Source: an uncultured archaeon | GTDB taxonomy: Archaea; Asgardarchaeota; Thorarchaeia; Thorarchaeales; Thorarchaeaceae | Assembly (NCBI GenBank): GCA_964458565.1 | Contig: CAYWJO010000005.1 | Coordinates: 52,375 to 116,374 of the forward strand | DNA length: 64,000 nucleotides | Direction: 5' to 3' | Shown here: positions 2,074 through 52,626 of the stretch, piece by piece | Layout: each line of letters starts with the position of its first letter | Numbering within the stretch: position 1 is the stretch's first letter | Translations under genes and position numbers: made by a program | Notes under the pieces: generated by a model | Database searches by the model: none | Told to the model about the DNA's origin: nothing | What the model saw: the letters and a program-made list of their open reading frames with translations, nothing else

Positions 2074-2715
2074 CTATTGTTCACCTACACGAAGTTGTAT
2101 TGCAGCTAGTATCTCTTCAGATCTTATAGTTTCTTTTTGAACTTCTGAGAGTTCTGTCTTCAAACGATAGGTGTATCCAGTACGCTTTCCATATCTTTCA
2201 AGAGGTCCCTTACCATTATTCCACATTCGTGCTAGATAAGTCGAAGCGGTACTCTTTGGAAGATCCTCGACAAATGTAGTTTCATAAATCTCAGTAACAT
2301 CTAATGAAGAGAATTTACCATGCTTGAATGATGCATAGATTACTATCCGCATCTTTTCGTAGCTACTCATGGAATCAAATTGGATTTCTTCAATCTCGGG
2401 TTCAATAGGTTCCTCTTCAATCTCATCAAAGACATATCCAGTACTAGTTTCCAAAAACACTCTAAATTTAGCAAACATCTCCTCAACACTACTACTCTTT
2501 ACTTGAAAACTAGACTCCTCTCCTGTTGATTCATCCGATACAAGAATTTTGAAATCAAATGGGGATTCAGTAAGAGCCAAAATACGACGAAAGCGTGTCA
2601 ATGCTTCACCTGGATTAACATAACGACATTGAAAAATCTCTTGAGAGCCTGGGCCCGATCTGTATGTAAATTCATATACATAGTTTGTACGATAATCATT
2701 TTCCAAGCTTCTCAC
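2074..2715 (-). CDS. Hypothetical protein with C-terminal winged-helix DNA-binding domain
   Basis: C-terminal FSSLDVTEIYE...STASTYLARM...LERYGKRTGYTYRL has a wHTH pattern. Acidic linker. Two similar N-terminal beta-beta-alpha units. Confidence 0.6.
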   Translation of the reverse strand: MRSLENDYRTNYVYEFTYRSGPGSQEIFQCRYVNPGEALTRFRRILALTESPFDFKILVSDESTGEESSFQVKSSSVEEMFAKFRVFLETSTGYVFDEIEEEPIEPEIEEIQFDSMSSYEKMRIVIYASFKHGKFSSLDVTEIYETTFVEDLPKSTASTYLARMWNNGKGPLERYGKRTGYTYRLKTELSEVQKETIRSEEILAAIQLRVGEQ

Positions 2716-2740
2716 CTAGTTTCAATGTTTACTAAGATGT

Positions 2741-3178
2741 TTATTCACATCTACCTATTCTCACATCTAAATAAGTGTGAGTATGTGAATTACTAATACC
2801 TAGATAAGAACTACATAATGTGTCTGTAAGCCCTAGAGACACACCTAATCCATTTCACTTGTGATAAGCCGCATAGAACACTAATATCAAATTAATAAGG
2901 CCTATTAGAGCTCTAAATCAAAAAATAATACCTTTTTCCTTCTTTATCACTATTCACAAAATTATATGGTTTGTGAATAGCATGATACGCATATCATAAG
3001 TCTTTTTGCTTAGTTCCAATGGAAACGAAGGGGTGTCGCTATTCACATAGGCTAGCAAATCTATAGTATCTTCTTTCCCGTCAAAAAGCAGATTATAAAC
3101 TTCTTTTTAATAATCGATTCACAATTATGGCGCCATTCACTTCCTAAATATGTGAACTATTGTCAACAACGTGAATAG
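2741..3178. repeat. Array of (C/T)ATTCACA-like repeats in both orientations
   Basis: Copies at about 2741 (TTATTCACAT), 2783 (ATGTGAAT), 2950 (CTATTCACAAA), 2970 (TTTGTGAATAG), 3039 (CTATTCACAT), 3117 (ATTCACAA), 3134 (CATTCACT), 3150 (ATGTGAAC) and 3171 (GTGAATAG). The 2950/2970 pair is a perfect 11-bp inverted repeat. Confidence 0.8.
3013..3034 (+). promoter_or_regulatory. Origin recognition box (ORB) for Orc1/Cdc6; candidate replication origin
   Basis: GTTCCAATGGAAACGAAGGGGT matches the archaeal ORB consensus (TTCCAnTGGAAAC plus G-string). It lies in a 475-bp AT-rich intergenic region. Confidence 0.78.
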
Positions 3179-3189
3179 TCTATAATCAT

Positions 3190-4200
3190 CTATATTAATG
3201 GCAACATGAAATCATCTGGTCTTTCTCCAAGGATTAGATGTTTGTAAACATCACCAGCTCTCAAAGTAACCTCCTCTAACCGACCACATACTTCTACATT
3301 CATTCCACTCATTACATGTTCACCATATCGACCACGATAACTAACAATCTCTCTAAGGTCATTAATCTCATTACATTCTACCTGATATCGACTAGGCGTG
3401 TATATTGATTCAGAATCATCAACTATATGACAAACAACAGTACTAATTCCCATATTTTTGTATATACAATCCCCATATTGCCATTTCAAATCAGAAGGTA
3501 ATTTTACTAGTCTGATGAAGAAATCTATTGAATGATACAAGCCTTGAAGTTTTTTTTCTTTTTCTATTTTCATAAGGGTATCAAGATGCTGATTTTTTTT
3601 ACCCCATCGGAAAACTGTATGTTGTTTCAAAGTTTCTTCAGAGTATGACTTAACTTGATTTTCAGCACCCTTAATTTCTGACATAGCTTGAAATAAATTT
3701 CTACCTGCCTTAGATCCATATATTACCAAATCTATATCAGATTCATCATTACTCAAACCCACAAGCTGAGAACCAGTAACACCAATAGACTCCCATGATA
3801 TTCCACTATATTCCACTAAAATCTCTGCTAATTCAACAGTTGATTTCCGAATACTATTGAGATGTCCATTTCCATCTCTAAGATAACGTAATGCATCTAT
3901 CGGGTCATATATGATAGAAATCGACTCATCTGGTACTGCTTGCATATCGCGTCCTCGAATATCATCAAACCATATGTATTGCGGAGCATATTCTCGAAGA
4001 AATATTTCACGATCCGTCAGATATGGAAGTTTTCTGTAATTATCACCCCTTGTACTTTTACGATCTCCATCTTCATACGGGACATACCTCAAGTATGCTA
4101 TGATTCGATTCTTGGGATGTAATACACCTTTGACTTCGAAAATGTAGTTTTCATCAGTTTCAAGGAAATATCCTTCAATAGGATTCATCAATGTCATCAC
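3190..4200 (-). CDS. Predicted archaeal nucleotidyltransferase (COG1665-like)
   Basis: VKG.LHP...IAYLRYVP at the N-terminus, GVTGSQLVG...SDIDLVIYG Pol-beta-like motif, and a C-terminal OB-like VEVCGRLE. Confidence 0.8.
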   Translation of the reverse strand: MMTLMNPIEGYFLETDENYIFEVKGVLHPKNRIIAYLRYVPYEDGDRKSTRGDNYRKLPYLTDREIFLREYAPQYIWFDDIRGRDMQAVPDESISIIYDPIDALRYLRDGNGHLNSIRKSTVELAEILVEYSGISWESIGVTGSQLVGLSNDESDIDLVIYGSKAGRNLFQAMSEIKGAENQVKSYSEETLKQHTVFRWGKKNQHLDTLMKIEKEKKLQGLYHSIDFFIRLVKLPSDLKWQYGDCIYKNMGISTVVCHIVDDSESIYTPSRYQVECNEINDLREIVSYRGRYGEHVMSGMNVEVCGRLEEVTLRAGDVYKHLILGERPDDFMLPLI

Positions 4201-8976: not shown

Positions 8977-11900
8977 TCATATCAGCAATGTAGACATATT
9001 ATCTGCCATTGTTCCAAGAGTCAAGTTCTCTGGAGTCATATAATTATCATCTACATATTCGGCTGCTGTTAAAATAACAATGACCTCTTTCGAATTACAT
9101 TTTCTACACGCTACATCACTATGTAGATTGAGAAGTGTGTTGAGCTGTTGTTGAGTTGGAAAAACAGCATATGACTTGTTCCCTGCACAAAGATCATAAT
9201 ATCCATGATTTTTCAGTACAGGACCATTAATCTCACTAAGAAGTTTTTCTAAAATCTCAACTGATTTTTTCTTCATATTCTCAAGTATTGAAGAATTTAC
9301 AATCCATAATCCAGATTCCAAATCTATGAATTGACTATCATCACCAATACGTAATGCAACAAGAACTTCATCTGCAAGAAGCTCAGTCAAAGCTCTTCGC
9401 CCATCATCTACATTCATTGGAGCAGTACGCCCTTGAATTGACTGTACAGCAGTAGTTTCTATGAACTCCATTAAGACATCCCAATTCACGCATCCATTAG
9501 ATACATCGACAAAATCTTGTAGCAGACCAAACCATAATCTCATTTGGATAGCTCGACCTGATGATCCGACATCACGAACTGCATTGATTAAATCTGTATG
9601 AGTAATTTTCTCTTCTATAATTGGCTGTGATTGCTCAACAATATCTGTTTGAACGATACCAGTACTGAAAGTATCTAGAATTATGTCAAGCGAAGTTGTA
9701 AACGCAGACACAACAGTCACTGCTTCAAACTCATCATCACAATCCAATTGTTCCCTTATCATTGCCGCAGCAACACTGCCTCTTACAATGATTATCAATT
9801 CAATTACCTGGTTACCTAAATGTGACATATATTTCCGAATCTTTTCGATAAGTGAATCCATCGAGGTTGCTCTAATGTGTTCGGGCAGAATCAGTATAGC
9901 TCTGTCATTGATAACTAGTTCACTCTCTGATTTTTTCTCAATTATCACATCATCATTTTCCAATTTATTCAAAATGTATTGCATAATCACTTCTGTAACT
10001 GCTTCTAATCCTTTTCCCGGAATCGTGAATATGAATCCTCCCGGAACAAGAGGGATAGCTTCTCTGTCTATTGATTCAAAAGATAACAAATCTCGAATTA
10101 ATTCAGATAGTTCCTCTGGTCCTGACTTTGAATCCAGACTATGTAAAAAGCCCAATAAATCGCCCTCTGTCACAAACCGTTTTGATGCAAGGAATGCAAT
10201 GACATGATTTGCGATTTCACCAATCCTATCAAAAACTTGTTTTTGATCTGATATAGTCGATGTATCAATATCATCAAGTTCAACTCCTGGTTCTGATCCA
10301 GATATGGAAGTGATAGATTCGGTTTCATGAGATTCTTCAGATGCAATAATATCCATTGAAGTTGGGCTAACGAAGGGGTAGGTCGCTATTTCAAATGCAT
10401 TAGTATTTGGTAATATCATTATTGCACGACCCCGTTTTAATACACGAAGATACCTCTCTTGCTCTTCATTCAAAGATAAGAAACGGCTTCCAATCCCACT
10501 ATCATATGGTAGTCGAAATGTCACTTTTGAAGAGGTATTAGCTAAAATATTCGAAGAGATATTTGGTCTAGTGGAAACAACGACAACTCCTTGTCCTGTA
10601 GCTCTTTGAAGCATAACCATTGATTCTCCTGTTGTTATATCAGCTGCGGAATCCCTCGTATAACTCTCTGGAACAAGATTACTTGCTTCTTCGAGAACAA
10701 CTACATGATGAAGGTCTGGTGTTATTCCTCTTTTCATAGCATAATCAAAGATACGCTTTGCAACAAGATTGTAGAGCAATCTGGCAGCATCCATCCCACC
10801 TGTGCTTGCTACATATCGTAAATCAAAAATCACTCTTCGGTTCATTAAGCTCGATATTTTAACAGCATTTTTTCCTCCTGCCAAAATGGATCCAAGGGGT
10901 TCTCGATTCAGGATTTCCAGACGATTCAATAGAGCATCTCTTGTCATTTTCCCAGATTTATCATCATCTTCTGCTGCTTTTTCGATTAAATCTACCAAAA
11001 AACTCACTGAATTTGCATCCCGAGATGCAGATTCCACAACTCTCTCTATTGATTCTCTGAGAAGACGTTCCATTGCAGGGGTCAGCTCGGAAGACCCGCT
11101 TCGTTCTTTTAATAATTCCCTAAAAATACTGAATACAACATTAGCATGTCTTTTCTTAGAATCAAGCCCCGAATCAAAGATGTCGATAACGAAGGAGGAA
11201 TCCAATCCTGGTTTCAGAATAATTACATTATCATATCCCATCAAATCATGATATTCAGAACCTTTTACATCAAATACCCACCAAGGTATATTCGTTTTCT
11301 GACTTAATTCCGCAATAAGATGTTTGACAAATGTTGTTTTACCGGTCCCAGTTGCACCTAAGACAGCTATATGTTCCCGTAACCATTCTACTTTGAAACC
11401 TACTTCATTTAAAATACGTCCTTCAAATACTGTATTAGCTACCTTCAATTCGTTATCAATTATATCTCGTGAAGGAATTGTAAATGAAGGAATTGGAGTT
11501 GCCGTTATGACAGGGAGATTCTGTACTGGCATATTCACATATGCAGATAATCTGTTTACATGCATTCTTACCCGTTTAATATGCCTCCTTGTGATGCATC
11601 TATAGAATATCCTTCCTTTCGATTTACGTTCAATCAGTTTGAAACTTCCATCTCCTCCCCATATGGATAACGCCAAACCTTTCAATGCGTCTCTGTTTGC
11701 TATCTTTTTGGTTTCTCTAACATGTAAATAGGCTGTGGTATCAAACCATCCATTATCAATCTTAACATCATCGTACTGGTCAATCAGATATTTTTTTGCT
11801 GCTTGATCTGCTAATGAATCATCTTTGCTTTTTTCCTTTCGTCTAATAGACTTCCACTCTCTCTCCATTCTTCGTTTCTCTTTCTTAGCTGACGTTTTTG

Positions 11901-12714
11901 AAAAGACGCAGGTAAAAGATGCTGAATATCTCTGTTTGAGCATGGAAGAAAGTAGTGTACCAATTTGAGATCTATCAATACTTGGAGACACTTGAGGTAA
12001 TCCATCAAATAGTATCAATAGATTATCAGATATATTATCATTATCTGATTCGTCTTCTCCGATATTTGTATGAATGAGATAATCAAAAGCCTGACCTAAT
12101 TCATTTTCTCGCAGTAGTTTTAATTCGATATTTGTTATCGAAGCATGTAGAATTGCTTCAGTTCTTGTAGCCTCTTTCTTAAGAATTTGGCAAAGCTCTG
12201 ATAATGATTTTCCTCTGACAGTTAGGAAAATTCGCAGATACGGTGTTTCATTATATATTCCTGCTTCAAACGCCATAGACAAACAATCTGCCATTCCTGA
12301 TCTGAGTGCAAGCAACATTGCTGTATTATACGTTGGATGATTGTCATCATCTAACTCAACCCTCATATTCATTGATGATATCTCAAAACAACACGTCACA
12401 ACATTGTGTTTCCCAAGGCTGAGAATTGCGTATTCATTGCTTATTTCTATAGAAATTCTTTCGTTATTGATAGCATATCTAATCCACGCAAGTCCGGTTA
12501 GTATTGGAAATAAGCATACGATTACTTCGATTATTATTTTCATTGGTATTGAAGGTGCAAAACCTAGTCCTGATAATGGAAGAAGATATACACTGATTAG
12601 ATAGAAGAAGGATACGAGTATTCCTACTACCCACATAGTCCTGATATACATCCATTTTGTATCAATGTTTGTGCGTAGTTCCGACGGTCCAGACATGATT
12701 CTCACACCGTTCAT
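8977..12714 (-). CDS. Large membrane-anchored HerA/VirB4-like ATPase (DUF87), with ~450-aa C-terminal extension
   Basis: Two N-terminal TM helices, Walker A HIAVLGATGTGKTT, FDVKGSEY, Walker B VVLEEA, STRP...ILANT. Confidence 0.8.
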   Translation of the reverse strand: MNGVRIMSGPSELRTNIDTKWMYIRTMWVVGILVSFFYLISVYLLPLSGLGFAPSIPMKIIIEVIVCLFPILTGLAWIRYAINNERISIEISNEYAILSLGKHNVVTCCFEISSMNMRVELDDDNHPTYNTAMLLALRSGMADCLSMAFEAGIYNETPYLRIFLTVRGKSLSELCQILKKEATRTEAILHASITNIELKLLRENELGQAFDYLIHTNIGEDESDNDNISDNLLILFDGLPQVSPSIDRSQIGTLLSSMLKQRYSASFTCVFSKTSAKKEKRRMEREWKSIRRKEKSKDDSLADQAAKKYLIDQYDDVKIDNGWFDTTAYLHVRETKKIANRDALKGLALSIWGGDGSFKLIERKSKGRIFYRCITRRHIKRVRMHVNRLSAYVNMPVQNLPVITATPIPSFTIPSRDIIDNELKVANTVFEGRILNEVGFKVEWLREHIAVLGATGTGKTTFVKHLIAELSQKTNIPWWVFDVKGSEYHDLMGYDNVIILKPGLDSSFVIDIFDSGLDSKKRHANVVFSIFRELLKERSGSSELTPAMERLLRESIERVVESASRDANSVSFLVDLIEKAAEDDDKSGKMTRDALLNRLEILNREPLGSILAGGKNAVKISSLMNRRVIFDLRYVASTGGMDAARLLYNLVAKRIFDYAMKRGITPDLHHVVVLEEASNLVPESYTRDSAADITTGESMVMLQRATGQGVVVVSTRPNISSNILANTSSKVTFRLPYDSGIGSRFLSLNEEQERYLRVLKRGRAIMILPNTNAFEIATYPFVSPTSMDIIASEESHETESITSISGSEPGVELDDIDTSTISDQKQVFDRIGEIANHVIAFLASKRFVTEGDLLGFLHSLDSKSGPEELSELIRDLLSFESIDREAIPLVPGGFIFTIPGKGLEAVTEVIMQYILNKLENDDVIIEKKSESELVINDRAILILPEHIRATSMDSLIEKIRKYMSHLGNQVIELIIIVRGSVAAAMIREQLDCDDEFEAVTVVSAFTTSLDIILDTFSTGIVQTDIVEQSQPIIEEKITHTDLINAVRDVGSSGRAIQMRLWFGLLQDFVDVSNGCVNWDVLMEFIETTAVQSIQGRTAPMNVDDGRRALTELLADEVLVALRIGDDSQFIDLESGLWIVNSSILENMKKKSVEILEKLLSEINGPVLKNHGYYDLCAGNKSYAVFPTQQQLNTLLNLHSDVACRKCNSKEVIVILTAAEYVDDNYMTPENLTLGTMADNMSTLLI

Positions 12715-36535: not shown

Positions 36536-36633
36536 ATAGACATCAAGGCCTATTCTATTTCCAAAATAAAGGTTCCCAAACATCAATACTAGAACACGTG
36601 TTCTAATAATACGATTCATTTACTAGTCAGTAT

Positions 36634-47772: not shown

Positions 47773-48978
47773 TCATTTCCTCCGGTCTTCTAGTAATTTG
47801 AGGAGAAATTGTTCTAATAGTTCAGCTGGCACATCTGAGAGTCCAATCATAGTAGTTTGTCCTCTTTGTCCTACTCCTGAACGTTTCGTGTCAATTGTAC
47901 CATGGGCATTCAAATCTTGTATCCATTCCCAGACTTGTGTATGAGCCCGTGGTTCCACACCGTACTCTTCACAAATCGAATGGTACATTTCCTCCACCTC
48001 GCCCATCGTTACATATGCTCCACGATTCTCCTTTAGTTGCCTAGCTGCTCCAAGTAATAGCAATTTATTCTGTAGTGGTAACGCAGCGAAAATCTCTTTC
48101 CTAAGTTCTGGATGCGTATCTGCTTTTGCTTTGCGTGCATAATCAGGAATAACTCTGTCAGAACACTCACTATCAGCCTGTTTTCCTGCTCGTAATAGCA
48201 ACTCTATTGCATATCTTGCATCTCCTCTTTCAGATGCTATATCACATATTATTTGCAGCGTTTCACTCATCACTACTTTGGGCTCAAATGCCATATTTGC
48301 TCGCTCGCTTAAAATATCGTAGAGCGCTTCTGAAGCATACCTACGAAATCTTAAGACATTCCTCTGAAGTGTACTTGATGTGCTCTGATCCAAAATACTG
48401 TCATCAAGTGGGATTTCTCGACCCACCACTATTATAGAAAGACGTTGTGGGGCATTCAACCTATCATCCATCAATCTCGTAAGATCATATAGAATATCTG
48501 CACCCTTTTGTTTGATGAAATAGTCCAATTCGTCTAAAACCAACAGAAGATATCTATCTTCTGTATCTAATGCCTCTAGTAACATCTGCAAAAGCTCTTC
48601 TGGTGAATGTCCGCGTTTCGGAAACTTAGGCTTAAATTCTCTCAGCATTCGAAGATATACCAGATATGAACTCTTGTTCACTCTACAATTGATGTGTATT
48701 TTGTGAAGTCTTATTCCACGTTTCTCGGCAGCTTTAACCATTTGATCGGAGAATCTCTTTGCAACTGCAGTTTTTCCTGTACCAACAGGACCTTCTATCA
48801 CTACTCTATGACTAGTATTACCCGGTGAAGTTATCATTGTCTTGAAATAACGTGCTAGAGACCGTAACTCCTCCTCTCGATGTGGCAAAGATTCGGGAAC
48901 ATAATCAATGGATAACAACTCCTCTGCCTTGAATACACTTTTTTTACTTAGTTCATCTTCCACAAAGTCGCGAGGCAT
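47773..48978 (-). CDS. cdc6: Orc1/Cdc6 replication initiator
   Basis: YVPESLPHREEE, GPVGTGKT, HINC, LDELD, GDARYAI.LL, C-terminal wHTH. Confidence 0.95.
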   Translation of the reverse strand: MPRDFVEDELSKKSVFKAEELLSIDYVPESLPHREEELRSLARYFKTMITSPGNTSHRVVIEGPVGTGKTAVAKRFSDQMVKAAEKRGIRLHKIHINCRVNKSSYLVYLRMLREFKPKFPKRGHSPEELLQMLLEALDTEDRYLLLVLDELDYFIKQKGADILYDLTRLMDDRLNAPQRLSIIVVGREIPLDDSILDQSTSSTLQRNVLRFRRYASEALYDILSERANMAFEPKVVMSETLQIICDIASERGDARYAIELLLRAGKQADSECSDRVIPDYARKAKADTHPELRKEIFAALPLQNKLLLLGAARQLKENRGAYVTMGEVEEMYHSICEEYGVEPRAHTQVWEWIQDLNAHGTIDTKRSGVGQRGQTTMIGLSDVPAELLEQFLLKLLEDRRK

Positions 48979-49075
48979 TAGAGTCCATAAATCCTGCCTT
49001 CATCTCACCTTAAAAGAGTTGTGTGAATTGTGCGATTAAATGCACATTAATGGAGGAGGTATCCGAAAGTATTAG

Positions 49076-49150
49076 TGGCGAGCTCTGCACTCAAGATCCA
49101 TATCATCGTCATTACTGACTCATTGGGGTCAATGCAGTCATCACTCGCCA
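49076..49150 (-). ncRNA. Candidate small structured RNA with box C/D-like motifs
   Basis: 7-bp terminal stem TGGCGAG/CTCGCCA, GTGATGA (C), ATGA (D'?), ATGACGA (C'), TTGA (D?). TATA-like TTTTAAG about 22 nt upstream. Confidence 0.45.
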
Positions 49151-49200: not shown

Positions 49201-49307
49201 TGGTGCGGCCACCGGGAATCTCTCAGAAAACGGAAATCGGAATCTGATTCGAACCCGGGCTAGAGCCTTGGGAGGGCTCTATCCTAACCAGACTAGACCA
49301 TGGCCGC
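49201..49307 (-). tRNA. tRNA-Gly(CCC) with 30-nt T-loop intron (~59/60)
   Basis: A cloverleaf with CCA is obtained after removing about 49218-49247. Relaxed BHB. Confidence 0.9.
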
Positions 49308-50541: not shown

Positions 50542-52626
50542 ATGTCAATCCTTATAGCCAAATCACCCAAGAGAATCTTGAGTGCAGAGCCTATGGGCGA
50601 TGATGACGAATTTATTGTTGGATTCGATATCCACCCTTCTCATAGTCCCCGGTCTACTAAGAGACCCAAGTTTGCTTGTGCTGTTCTACGTAGTGGTGTA
50701 ATACTTAGCGAGCATCCTGAGGTTTCTAGAAGCACCCTTCTAAAATTAGTACAGGAAATTAAACCGCGTTATCTTGCAACCGATAATGTATTTGAAATCG
50801 TTCCTGACAGTAAATCACTATTCCGATTTGTTGATAGAATTCCCCATGAAACACGAATTGTTCAGGTGACTGGTGTGCCGCCTCGTCAGATTGCCTTAAA
50901 ACGACTGGCAAAAAGACATGGAATTTCAGTAAGAGGAAAACCAACCCCACTTGAGTCTGCAGTTATAGTAGCAAAGCTTGCATTCATTGGAGTAGGTTAT
51001 ACTCTAGAATGCTTTGGAGATCACACTGAAATCAGAGTTACTCGAGGCCGAAAACCTGGTCGGGGTGGTCAAAGTGCCAATAGATTCAGAAGAAAAGTAC
51101 ACTCTCTTATCCAACAAATGACACGTTTCATAGAATCCGAATTGACCCAAGCTGAAATAGAGTATGATTTAGATTTAAGAGAATCTGATTTTGGCTATTC
51201 TAGCTCACGCATAGTTGCATATGCACCTCTTCCAGCTATAAAAGACCTGATTGAAATACGAAGGGGTCGTGATATCAATGTTGGAATCTCTCCTGTCCGA
51301 AAACGTGCAGAGTTTTTACCTTTAGAGCCAAAACCAACTCCCTCTACTATTCGTCCCAAGTTCTTTATCCTTGGGATTGACCCAGGAACAACAGCTGCAA
51401 TATGTCTCATGACACTAGACGGACACGCACACTATCTAAAGAGTGCTAAGGGCCTCACACGTGCTGATATAATCCGAGATGTATACGGACATGGTATTCC
51501 AATATTGATTGCTGCAGATGTTGATACAGAACCACGATTCGTCAAGAAAATTGCCAGTACTCTCAATGCAAACTTGTATACGCCTAACAAACCAATTCCA
51601 ATTGCAGAAAAGAACGAGATTGCACGCGAGTTTTCCGAGCGAATAAAAATCAAAAATGCCCACGAACGCGATGCTCTAACGGCTGCAGTTTATGCATACA
51701 GAAGTATCTTACCAAAGCTACAGCAAATTGATCGAAAAGTGCGAGAAGAGCAATTAACTATTGATCGTACCCATCTAAAGGCATTGGTTATCAAGGGCAT
51801 TCCAATGAATGAAGCAATTGGAAGTCTTATTAGCGCAGAACTTGAGGTTGCAGAAATTCCTCCTGAAAAAGCAGAGCCTGAGGAGGAGATAATTACACAG
51901 GAGAAATATGATAATCTAAAGAAAAAACACACCGAATTACTAGAAGATAACGATTCTCTCCTGACACAGATTGAAGACCTAAAACGAATTGTGGAGTTTC
52001 TAAGGTTCAGAGAAAGCGAACTGGAACATAGTCTAGAAATCGTTAGTCGTGACACCTATTGGAAGGTTAAGCGAGACCGCGAATTAGCCAAAAAGGCATC
52101 CGAGGTAAAGAATCTTCAAAATGAAACTAATAAATTCGAACAAGAGGTAAAGCAACTAAAAAGCCGGCTTGACCTTTTACGTGGTGTCAAGCGTCTCGAA
52201 ATGCGTGGAGATATGTTGGCAATAAAAACAATCGAGAAGTTCACACAAGAATCGATTGATGAATATCAACGAAAAGTAGGTCTGAAGAGTGGAGATATAG
52301 TTCTATTTGAAGATGCTAGCGGTGGTGGGCACCATACTGCAGGTTTACTAATCGAACGTGAAATTCGTGCTGTGGTAGTTGACACACCTTTATCCCATCT
52401 AGCGAAAGACAAGTTGATTAGGTCACTAATACCGGTCGTAGATGCTAAAGAAGTAGAGCTCCAACGAATCGATGAATTTGCATTCATTAGTAGAAAGAAA
52501 TTCGAACAACAACTTCATGATTTTCTGAAAGATGTTCGTGAAAAGGCACGACAGAAGGGTGAAGAAGAATTGATTTCCATGATAGAAGAATATAGGCATG
52601 GCGCCATCGATGATCGCGCGTTATAA
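50542..52626 (+). CDS. DUF460 / COG2433 protein (RNase H-like folds plus coiled coil)
   Basis: LATDNVFE, GRGGQSANRFRR, GIDPGTT, HERDALTAA, long coiled coil. Confidence 0.88.
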   Translation: MSILIAKSPKRILSAEPMGDDDEFIVGFDIHPSHSPRSTKRPKFACAVLRSGVILSEHPEVSRSTLLKLVQEIKPRYLATDNVFEIVPDSKSLFRFVDRIPHETRIVQVTGVPPRQIALKRLAKRHGISVRGKPTPLESAVIVAKLAFIGVGYTLECFGDHTEIRVTRGRKPGRGGQSANRFRRKVHSLIQQMTRFIESELTQAEIEYDLDLRESDFGYSSSRIVAYAPLPAIKDLIEIRRGRDINVGISPVRKRAEFLPLEPKPTPSTIRPKFFILGIDPGTTAAICLMTLDGHAHYLKSAKGLTRADIIRDVYGHGIPILIAADVDTEPRFVKKIASTLNANLYTPNKPIPIAEKNEIAREFSERIKIKNAHERDALTAAVYAYRSILPKLQQIDRKVREEQLTIDRTHLKALVIKGIPMNEAIGSLISAELEVAEIPPEKAEPEEEIITQEKYDNLKKKHTELLEDNDSLLTQIEDLKRIVEFLRFRESELEHSLEIVSRDTYWKVKRDRELAKKASEVKNLQNETNKFEQEVKQLKSRLDLLRGVKRLEMRGDMLAIKTIEKFTQESIDEYQRKVGLKSGDIVLFEDASGGGHHTAGLLIEREIRAVVVDTPLSHLAKDKLIRSLIPVVDAKEVELQRIDEFAFISRKKFEQQLHDFLKDVREKARQKGEEELISMIEEYRHGAIDDRAL

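Follow-up and report, generated by a model that had tools for sequence, protein, structure and literature searches.

Element A, a 474-bp intergenic gap (positions 2716–3189) beside a gene for a winged-helix protein, is a real and strongly conserved part of the chromosomal origin locus of this thorarchaeon, yet it is very probably not the site at which replication starts. Unwinding and MCM loading would take place at element B, a pair of inverted ORBs about 4 kb away. Element A is probably a docking region, with Orc1 and an undescribed DNA-binding protein as the bound proteins. The initial annotation had described the gap as a two-component origin. The region indeed belongs to the origin locus, but the gap itself is very improbable as the initiating origin, because its only ORB lacks an inverted partner, an unwinding core is not conserved in it, and the GC-skew switch lies at element B.

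The window, meaning the whole 64-kb stretch of DNA that was analyzed, corresponds to C5:52375–116374 of a 3.73-Mb assembly that is 93% complete. Positions without a contig or locus name are those of the window. Close relatives of the product of the winged-helix gene were found at 48 loci (66–77% identity). The loci from Thorarchaeota and other Asgard lineages pooled here are kin and not independent of one another.

Anatomy of element A

The ORB annotated at 3013–3034 (+) was confirmed. It carries a G-string and is an Orc1/Cdc6 site by consensus. Strict ORBs number just three in the genome (3.73 Mb), and the other two lie at C5:51144 and 51332. The array of ATTCACA-like boxes was likewise upheld, with six exact and four near copies between 2743 and 3176. 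The exact copies are at 2743 (+), 2784–2790 (−), 2952 (+), 2972–2978 (−), 3041 (+) and 3117 (+), and the near copies at 2776–2782 (−), 3135 (+), 3151–3157 (−) and 3170–3176 (−). Six exact copies in less than 500 bp make this the densest ATTCACA cluster in the genome, where the mean is 0.13 per 500 bp, and 0.13 in intergenic DNA as well. Markov resampling of the gap gave an expectation of 0.12 copies, and none of 20,000 resamples reached six. The second-ranked cluster of ATTCAC, on contig C3, falls within an ORF of 5599 aa. Across the whole window, ATTCACA occurs at chance level (22 observed, 19 expected).

The winged-helix gene (2074–2715, −) encodes 213 aa. Box 1 (ATTCACA; 2743–2749, +) is situated between its start codon and a putative TATA-like promoter element (2767–2775, −), assigned by position and conservation within a 24-bp block conserved at 70–100% per column. 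It is found in 48 of the 51 loci compared in Thorarchaeota, at −272/−271 from the ORB. Boxes 2 and 3 (2776–2790, −; 47–49/51 loci) form a tandem with an 8-bp period, which abuts the putative TATA element on the upstream side and covers the BRE position. Odin-like, Nitrososphaerales and other loci likewise have a box, single or in tandem, immediately upstream of a TATA-like element. The AT-rich tract reported at 2880–2945 is present, with 76% AT compared with 59% in the genome and 61% in intergenic DNA; it is conserved in length but not in sequence. At its right end, a TCCA tetramer is conserved, which here reads TCCT (2937–2940).

Inverted boxes 4 (2952–2958, +) and 5 (2972–2978, −), whose inverted pairing (2950–2960/2970–2980) was confirmed, have TTCAC cores 15 bp apart and occur in all 51 loci at −62/−61 and −42/−41. 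Beyond the ORB, box 6 (3041–3047, +) lies 6 bp past the end of the G-string, and in 49/51 loci it is at +27. The segment 3117–3157 holds box 7 (3117–3123, +), a GGCGCC motif (3129–3134), box 8 (3135–3141, +) and the inverted box 9 (3151–3157, −), and its components are found in 50–51 of the 51 loci. Box 10 (3170–3176, −), with the sequence ATTCACG, is variable: 16/51 loci have it at its own offset and 16 more at +163.

Two further motifs of the initial annotation were dropped. A mini-ORB at 2852–2864 does exist in the sequence but is not conserved among thorarchaeal loci; no mini-ORB repeats were found around the ORB of element A, where the repeats are TTCACA boxes. Similarly, the single DnaA-box match TTATTCACA is present, but conservation of that box is confined to its 7-bp core. 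The 9-bp consensus TTWTNCACA occurs in 1 of the 10 copies, and its 5′ flank is not conserved across 482 aligned boxes. A search of the genome (93% complete) for DnaA domain IV (PF08299) gave a best E of 0.48, below the cut-off, and the analogy with DnaA boxes was given up on these grounds. Rfam returned a 16-bit chance match for structured RNA in element A against a cut-off of 65, a sigma-70 promoter scan was at chance level, and no plasmid match was found.

Conservation in Thorarchaeota

Comparison of the 51 thorarchaeal loci, and of loci from other Asgard lineages, showed that the ORB and the boxes are co-conserved beside homologs of the winged-helix gene. A strict ORB lies 280–355 bp upstream of the gene in 46/47 loci. 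Inverted second ORBs were not found in element A, a single ORB being present in 46/47 loci. Relative to the ORB, the boxes are placed at −272, −230, −62, −42, +27, +102, +120 and +136 and GGCGCC at +113, each within ±1 bp in the 51 loci. This fixed geometry spans 410 bp, over which most of the spacer sequence has diverged (identity to this genome averages 57%, motifs included). Since the offsets are fixed while the sequence between them has changed, the spacer lengths appear to be under selection. In one locus (L041), the upstream neighbors have changed and element A is still found with the winged-helix gene.

Element B and the probable site of initiation

Element B has the structure ORB(−)/AT-rich core/ORB(+) and lies at C5:51003–51163 (L001:15004–15164), outside the window and 1.0–1.4 kb to the left of its first base. 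The left ORB (about 51003–51022) has one mismatch and completes a pair around 121 bp at 75% AT, with the AT-rich core put at ~105 bp. In this genome, a third, extra ORB stands beside the pair (region C5:51003–51332, L001:15004–15333). The pair was present in all 39 thorarchaeal loci examined. Across 42 loci, the two ORBs are 120–131 bp apart, with a mean of 71% AT and almost no boxes. Minimal archaeal origins have this pattern of two ORBs around an AT-rich stretch (bioRxiv 10.64898/2026.08.15.744077; PMC12141716), and the ORB–DUE–ORB core of element B is like that of Sulfolobus oriC1, in which ORB2–DUE–ORB3 is the essential core (PMC12141716). No orc1/cdc6 gene lies within 8 kb of element B in Thorarchaeota; in other Asgard classes, one is adjacent.

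GC skew was measured at fourfold sites along contig C5 and corrected for gene strand. It climbs to a peak at 50945 and then drops (bootstrap 5–95% interval 50945–51769; P < 5e-5, with no match in 20,000 gene-order permutations). The switch is therefore at element B and not at the proposed origin in element A, 4 kb off, and lends indirect support to initiation at B. When 38–48 related loci were pooled, genes pointing away from B had skews of −0.20 to −0.33 on both sides, and those pointing towards B −0.07 to +0.15, with the exception of one 103-aa gene (−0.16). The first class includes SDH (−0.33) and LKR (−0.27), both located between A and B, as well as the AA kinase (−0.23), sufS (−0.22) and iorA (−0.23). 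The skew of SDH and LKR is thus that expected of replication from B, since an origin at A would have placed them in the opposite class.

These results make it very improbable that element A itself initiates, the winged-helix protein taking the place of the second ORB as a WhiP-like co-initiator. The idea draws on the near-perfect ORB of element A, which is better conserved than the ORBs of element B, on the AT-rich tract beside it and on the fact that initiator genes usually adjoin their origins. Nevertheless, the skew switch and the genes between A and B point to element B, the second inverted ORB is missing, and relatives richer in GC have not conserved the AT tract. Sulfolobus oriC3, where Orc1 is not needed, is defined by WhiP, a protein with tandem winged helices (Samson et al. 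2013, PMC3607249). The present gene is similar in that it adjoins origin DNA with repeats that are possibly bound. It differs in encoding one winged helix with a beta-beta-alpha N-domain and in always accompanying an Orc1/ORB origin. Element A contains no match within two mismatches to the 12-bp TAC-repeat inverted repeat of WhiP (motif from bioRxiv 10.64898/2026.08.15.744077). With one winged helix, no such repeat and no ucm, the original comparison with WhiP did not hold on these features.

At this locus the skew passes from G-rich to C-rich, the reverse of the sign given by the bacterial rule. The ORB locus lies at the cumulative GC-skew maximum on contig C5 and in two further genomes, G304 (L136–L155) and G117 (L156–L175). 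In a closed 1.418-Mb genome, presumably Odinarchaeum, the switch at the ORB pair has the same sign (from +0.18 at 596 kb to values of −0.04 to −0.16 from 631 kb on), and in a Freya genome (3,576,204 bp) the switch is within about 100 kb of the ORB. No switch was seen in the Atabey sample, which is uninformative. Asgard origins and termini have been assigned by the GC-skew minimum alone (PMC9246712, PMC11291895). Because the sign found here opposes the bacterial rule, such minimum-based calls may be swapped and may need rechecking, the genome identities being presumptive.

A AAAATGGAGATAA-like motif is conserved inside the AT-rich core of element B, in one orientation in 15 loci and in the opposite orientation in 15. 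The split suggests that, in the course of thorarchaeal evolution, the segment enclosed by the inverted ORBs was turned around.

Position of cdc6

The orc1/cdc6 gene, the presumed source of the trans-acting initiator, is at 47773–48978 (−) with no ORB beside it. The observation that no ORB lies upstream of cdc6 was reproduced here and in 30 thorarchaeal cdc6 loci. The gene is about 20 kb from element A in most relatives and 45 kb here, with a range of about 20–49 kb in Thorarchaeota. As the homolog of the winged-helix gene usually adjoins cdc6 elsewhere, the thorarchaeal layout corresponds to the common Asgard locus minus cdc6, plus two lysine-pathway genes between A and B. Tools based on adjacency would miss the thorarchaeal origin because cdc6 has moved.

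An ATTCACA at 49022, upstream of cdc6, was taken as a chance occurrence and is present in 2/30 thorarchaeal loci. In the same upstream region, a stretch of about 90 nt (about 49060–49150, −) is highly conserved in 30/30 thorarchaeal cdc6 loci. It has TGATGA-like boxes and a short hairpin and is a candidate for a small RNA (of the C/D-box type or another) or for a short conserved ORF. Farther off, 4 kb past the right end of the window, C5:120475–121599 holds a second cdc6 paralog, which is divergent (27% identity).

The winged-helix protein

The wHTH identity given to the product of the 2074–2715 gene was supported by its fold over residues ~115–213. Residues 115–213 form a PadR/MarR-like winged helix, with a best Z of 8.9 to the PadR-like structure 7wjp (rmsd 3.9, 92 aligned; pLDDT of the whole-protein model 65). 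This C-terminal domain has a conserved STxSTYLxRL recognition helix, and the linker is acidic and variable. The fold is like that of PadR/MarR/BlaI repressors and AspA, but identities are 6–17%, no curated family cut-off is reached and there is an extra N-domain. Generic winged-helix matches of the C-domain were weak (Cdt1 C-domain, E 0.08–0.09; AspA, E 0.095). PDB sequence searches gave weak ArsR/BlaI-type matches only, and no Pfam or NCBIfam family could be assigned to the 213-aa protein. Profile comparison with the winged helix of Cdc6 gave 1.3%, and the predicted complex with Cdc6, at a score of 0.01, gave no answer and carries no weight as evidence.

The N-domain was modeled as two beta-beta-alpha units (pLDDT 89.5). 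Other lineages have one such unit, and the model thus suggests a fused dimerization module. Internal duplication of the domain is likely but unproven; profile comparison gave a weak signal (probability 2.4%, E 0.019). No clear match to a solved structure was found (best Z 6.3), and an atlas search with the N-domain returned its own cluster and small phage proteins only.

The winged-helix protein is the best candidate binder of the boxes. Searched with a deep profile, most families of Asgard archaea had a single strong match (E < 1e-14) in the majority of their genomes. A second, weak match to the profile was seen in many thorarchaeal genomes, this one included. No description of the gene or the motif was found in the literature, in a search of incomplete coverage.

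Other Asgard lineages and TACK archaea

Outside Thorarchaeota, 30 of 40 Asgard loci have the homolog no more than 7 kb from orc1/cdc6. In the commonest layout, it is divergent from cdc6, with a lone ORB at −250 to −310 and an ORB pair 0.6–1.6 kb downstream. Boxes are concentrated at the lone ORBs (175 within 200 bp vs 23 expected), compared with 36 vs 24 expected at paired ORBs, and the proximal promoter of the gene has 76 boxes vs 13 expected in 47 loci. Other Asgard classes also show a box at −61/−60, a box at +103/+104 and GCGCC at +115 to +117, and GCGCCA was seen again in one unassigned locus outside Thorarchaeota. Elements A and B are within 0.2–5.3 kb of each other in nearly all lineages despite reshuffling. 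In TACK-type contigs, among them those of Nitrososphaerales, the ORBs separate the gene from a divergently oriented cdc6, polD genes lie alongside, and boxes occur at the promoter of the gene; in Nitrososphaerales, TTTACA is seen at this promoter as well. Origins from Asgard archaea through to Nitrososphaerales have conserved the protein, which may therefore be an ancient component of the control of archaeal initiation.

The association of boxes and gene varies. Odin-like genomes have kept the promoter boxes though the lone ORB is lost. The box array tracks the lone ORB in families f8, f13 and f26, where the promoter of the winged-helix gene is bare, so that the linkage of boxes to the gene is not universal. 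In families f17 and f19, the gene is beside cdc6, the ORBs are 7–14 kb away and few boxes are near the gene.

The pattern in f8, f13 and f26 argues for another protein on the boxes, either a UBP-like nucleoid protein or Orc1, with the winged-helix gene a mere conserved neighbor. UBP is a 111-aa saddle-shaped dimer that places its beta-hairpins on one ucm inside the Sulfolobus oriC1 DUE and on more than 300 other sites (Dhanaraju et al. 2025, PMC12141716). It offers a precedent, as it binds an origin motif while an origin-encoded gene is not described (PMC12141716). A non-initiator protein on a non-ORB origin motif is also predicted here; unlike in the ucm/UBP system, about ten boxes are clustered outside the DUE, and a winged-helix protein is the candidate for binding them. 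Within one mismatch, ucm was absent from 42 element B DUEs and from element A. UBP was not among the listed fold matches of either domain, a remote link to the N-domain being conceivable. The involvement of another binder is quite improbable, because boxes persist at the gene promoter where the ORB is lost, and because a motif with one cluster in the genome and no enrichment across the window is unlike the site of a general nucleoid protein.

Families f21 and f22 (149 genomes, G131–G279; presumably Loki-like) gave weak profile matches only, to proteins of about 300 aa in the genomes examined. Canonical ORBs were found in 24/135 and 4/14 of their genomes, respectively, vs 75/85 in Thorarchaeota, and their cdc6 loci showed no ORB and no intergenic box array. 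As most of these genomes are without canonical ORBs and a full-length ortholog, their sequences suggest that the two families use a different ORB or initiation mode. The co-absence of gene and ORBs counts as one or two events.

Proposed function of element A

The explanation preferred here, which stands about evenly between right and wrong, is that oriC1 has two parts and that element A serves it as a satellite control module. Orc1 and the winged-helix protein would both be bound there, the gene of the latter would be autorepressed, and element B would be influenced in cis. One Orc1 would occupy the lone ORB, as its consensus indicates, and the winged-helix protein would occupy the TTCACA half-sites. 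A small N-domain and a flexible linker would allow direct and inverted pairs of differing spacing to be accommodated, and the rigid geometry would reflect a defined nucleoprotein complex. The complex is predicted to repress the promoter of the winged-helix gene itself, and in the ancestral layout it would also have been within the divergent cdc6 promoter region. In cis, it might loop to the core or tune the supply or activity of Orc1 there, by analogy with the second DnaA-box cluster of Bacillus oriC. The main job of element A is probably in cis on the origin, because Thorarchaeota kept the element unchanged after cdc6 had left. The satellite need not be required, as the Sulfolobus oriC1 core works as ORB2–DUE–ORB3 (PMC12141716).

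In Thermococcales, a second ORB cluster, comprising ORB3 and mini-ORBs in dp1, lies kilobases from oriC and is bound by Cdc6 in vivo, and looping has been proposed (Matsunaga et al. 2007, PMC1904270). Element A resembles it as a conserved extra ORB a few kilobases from oriC and differs in being intergenic, with one ORB, 7-bp boxes and a dedicated winged-helix gene. The oriC of Bacillus subtilis has two DnaA-box clusters flanking dnaA, with unwinding in one only (summarized in PMC1904270). The locus described here would likewise have two protein-binding clusters and one unwinding site, whereas DnaA is on both halves in Bacillus and here the boxes are 7 bp long and the genome has no DnaA domain IV. 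As at element A, one of the two clusters of a bipartite bacterial oriC extends into the promoter region of a gene at the origin.

A purely transcriptional role, in which Orc1 and the winged-helix protein regulate the gene (and ancestrally cdc6 too) with no effect in cis on B, is unlikely. It would suit the commonest layout outside Thorarchaeota, where element A is the divergent promoter region of cdc6 and the winged-helix gene, and it is consistent with the boxes flanking the putative TATA element and with the fold resembling PadR/MarR/BlaI repressors. However, seven boxes and the ORB are 240–460 bp from the gene, at the 3′ end of the next gene, and their spacing stayed fixed after the loss of cdc6. 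The proximity of A and B in nearly all lineages also argues against it.

The array was further considered as a centromere or nucleoid-organizing site, where the winged-helix protein would anchor or compact the origin like AspA or SegB and the ORB would link this to initiation. Many short sites in both orientations, a two-domain protein with an N-domain that the model makes likely to oligomerize, and the weak fold similarity to AspA are compatible with such a site. In addition, parA/parB are beside the locus in one Atabey-type genome, and an ATPase+RHH pair is near the gene in locus L259. On the other hand, rigid spacing around one ORB suits a defined complex better than a spreading centromere, the field of TGTAWTACA palindromes to the left of B is a better centromere candidate, and ParA is not consistently linked to the gene. 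A segregation site is accordingly improbable.

The satellite reading also has a stronger form, which is put forward only tentatively. The winged-helix protein would then be an undescribed core part of the ancestral Asgard–TACK origin, an accessory initiator acting with a third Orc1, and the complex at A would be required for the firing of B or would time it. If so, the lineage closest to eukaryotes would have origins made of two parts and served by several factors, and initiation in the Loki-like families would have changed its mode.

No experimentally mapped Asgard origin was found in the literature searched, and a 2025 replisome survey (PMC12680538) makes no mention of ORBs or winged-helix origin factors. 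The locus provides a precise origin prediction for Thorarchaeota and points to a candidate accessory factor, for which a 7-bp site is defined.

Neighboring features

The palindrome GAACACRTGTTC, often extended to 16–18 bp, has 17 copies genome-wide, at C5:50970, 51296, 51343 and 51664, at 36592 in the window and at 12 further sites. Four copies around element B and a 94-aa gene are conserved there in nearly all thorarchaeal loci. We take the palindrome to resemble the GAAC-N4-GTTC SOS box of Gram-positive bacteria. The 94-aa gene (L001:15361–15645, −) is conserved, has no Pfam match, adjoins element B in 41 loci and is flanked by the GAACAC palindromes.

Of the 29 TGTAWTACA palindromes in the genome, 12 are in the 11.4 kb to the left of element B (C5:38434–49800), and one is at 4118 in the window. 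At 8977–12714 (−), a 1245-aa protein with a central HerA/DUF87 ATPase domain is encoded in conserved synteny. At about 49201–49307 (−), an apparent tRNA-Gly(CCC) with an intron of about 30 nt in the T-loop region was read by eye, having been missed by ARAGORN. Non-canonical tRNA introns are known in Asgard archaea (PMC11291895).
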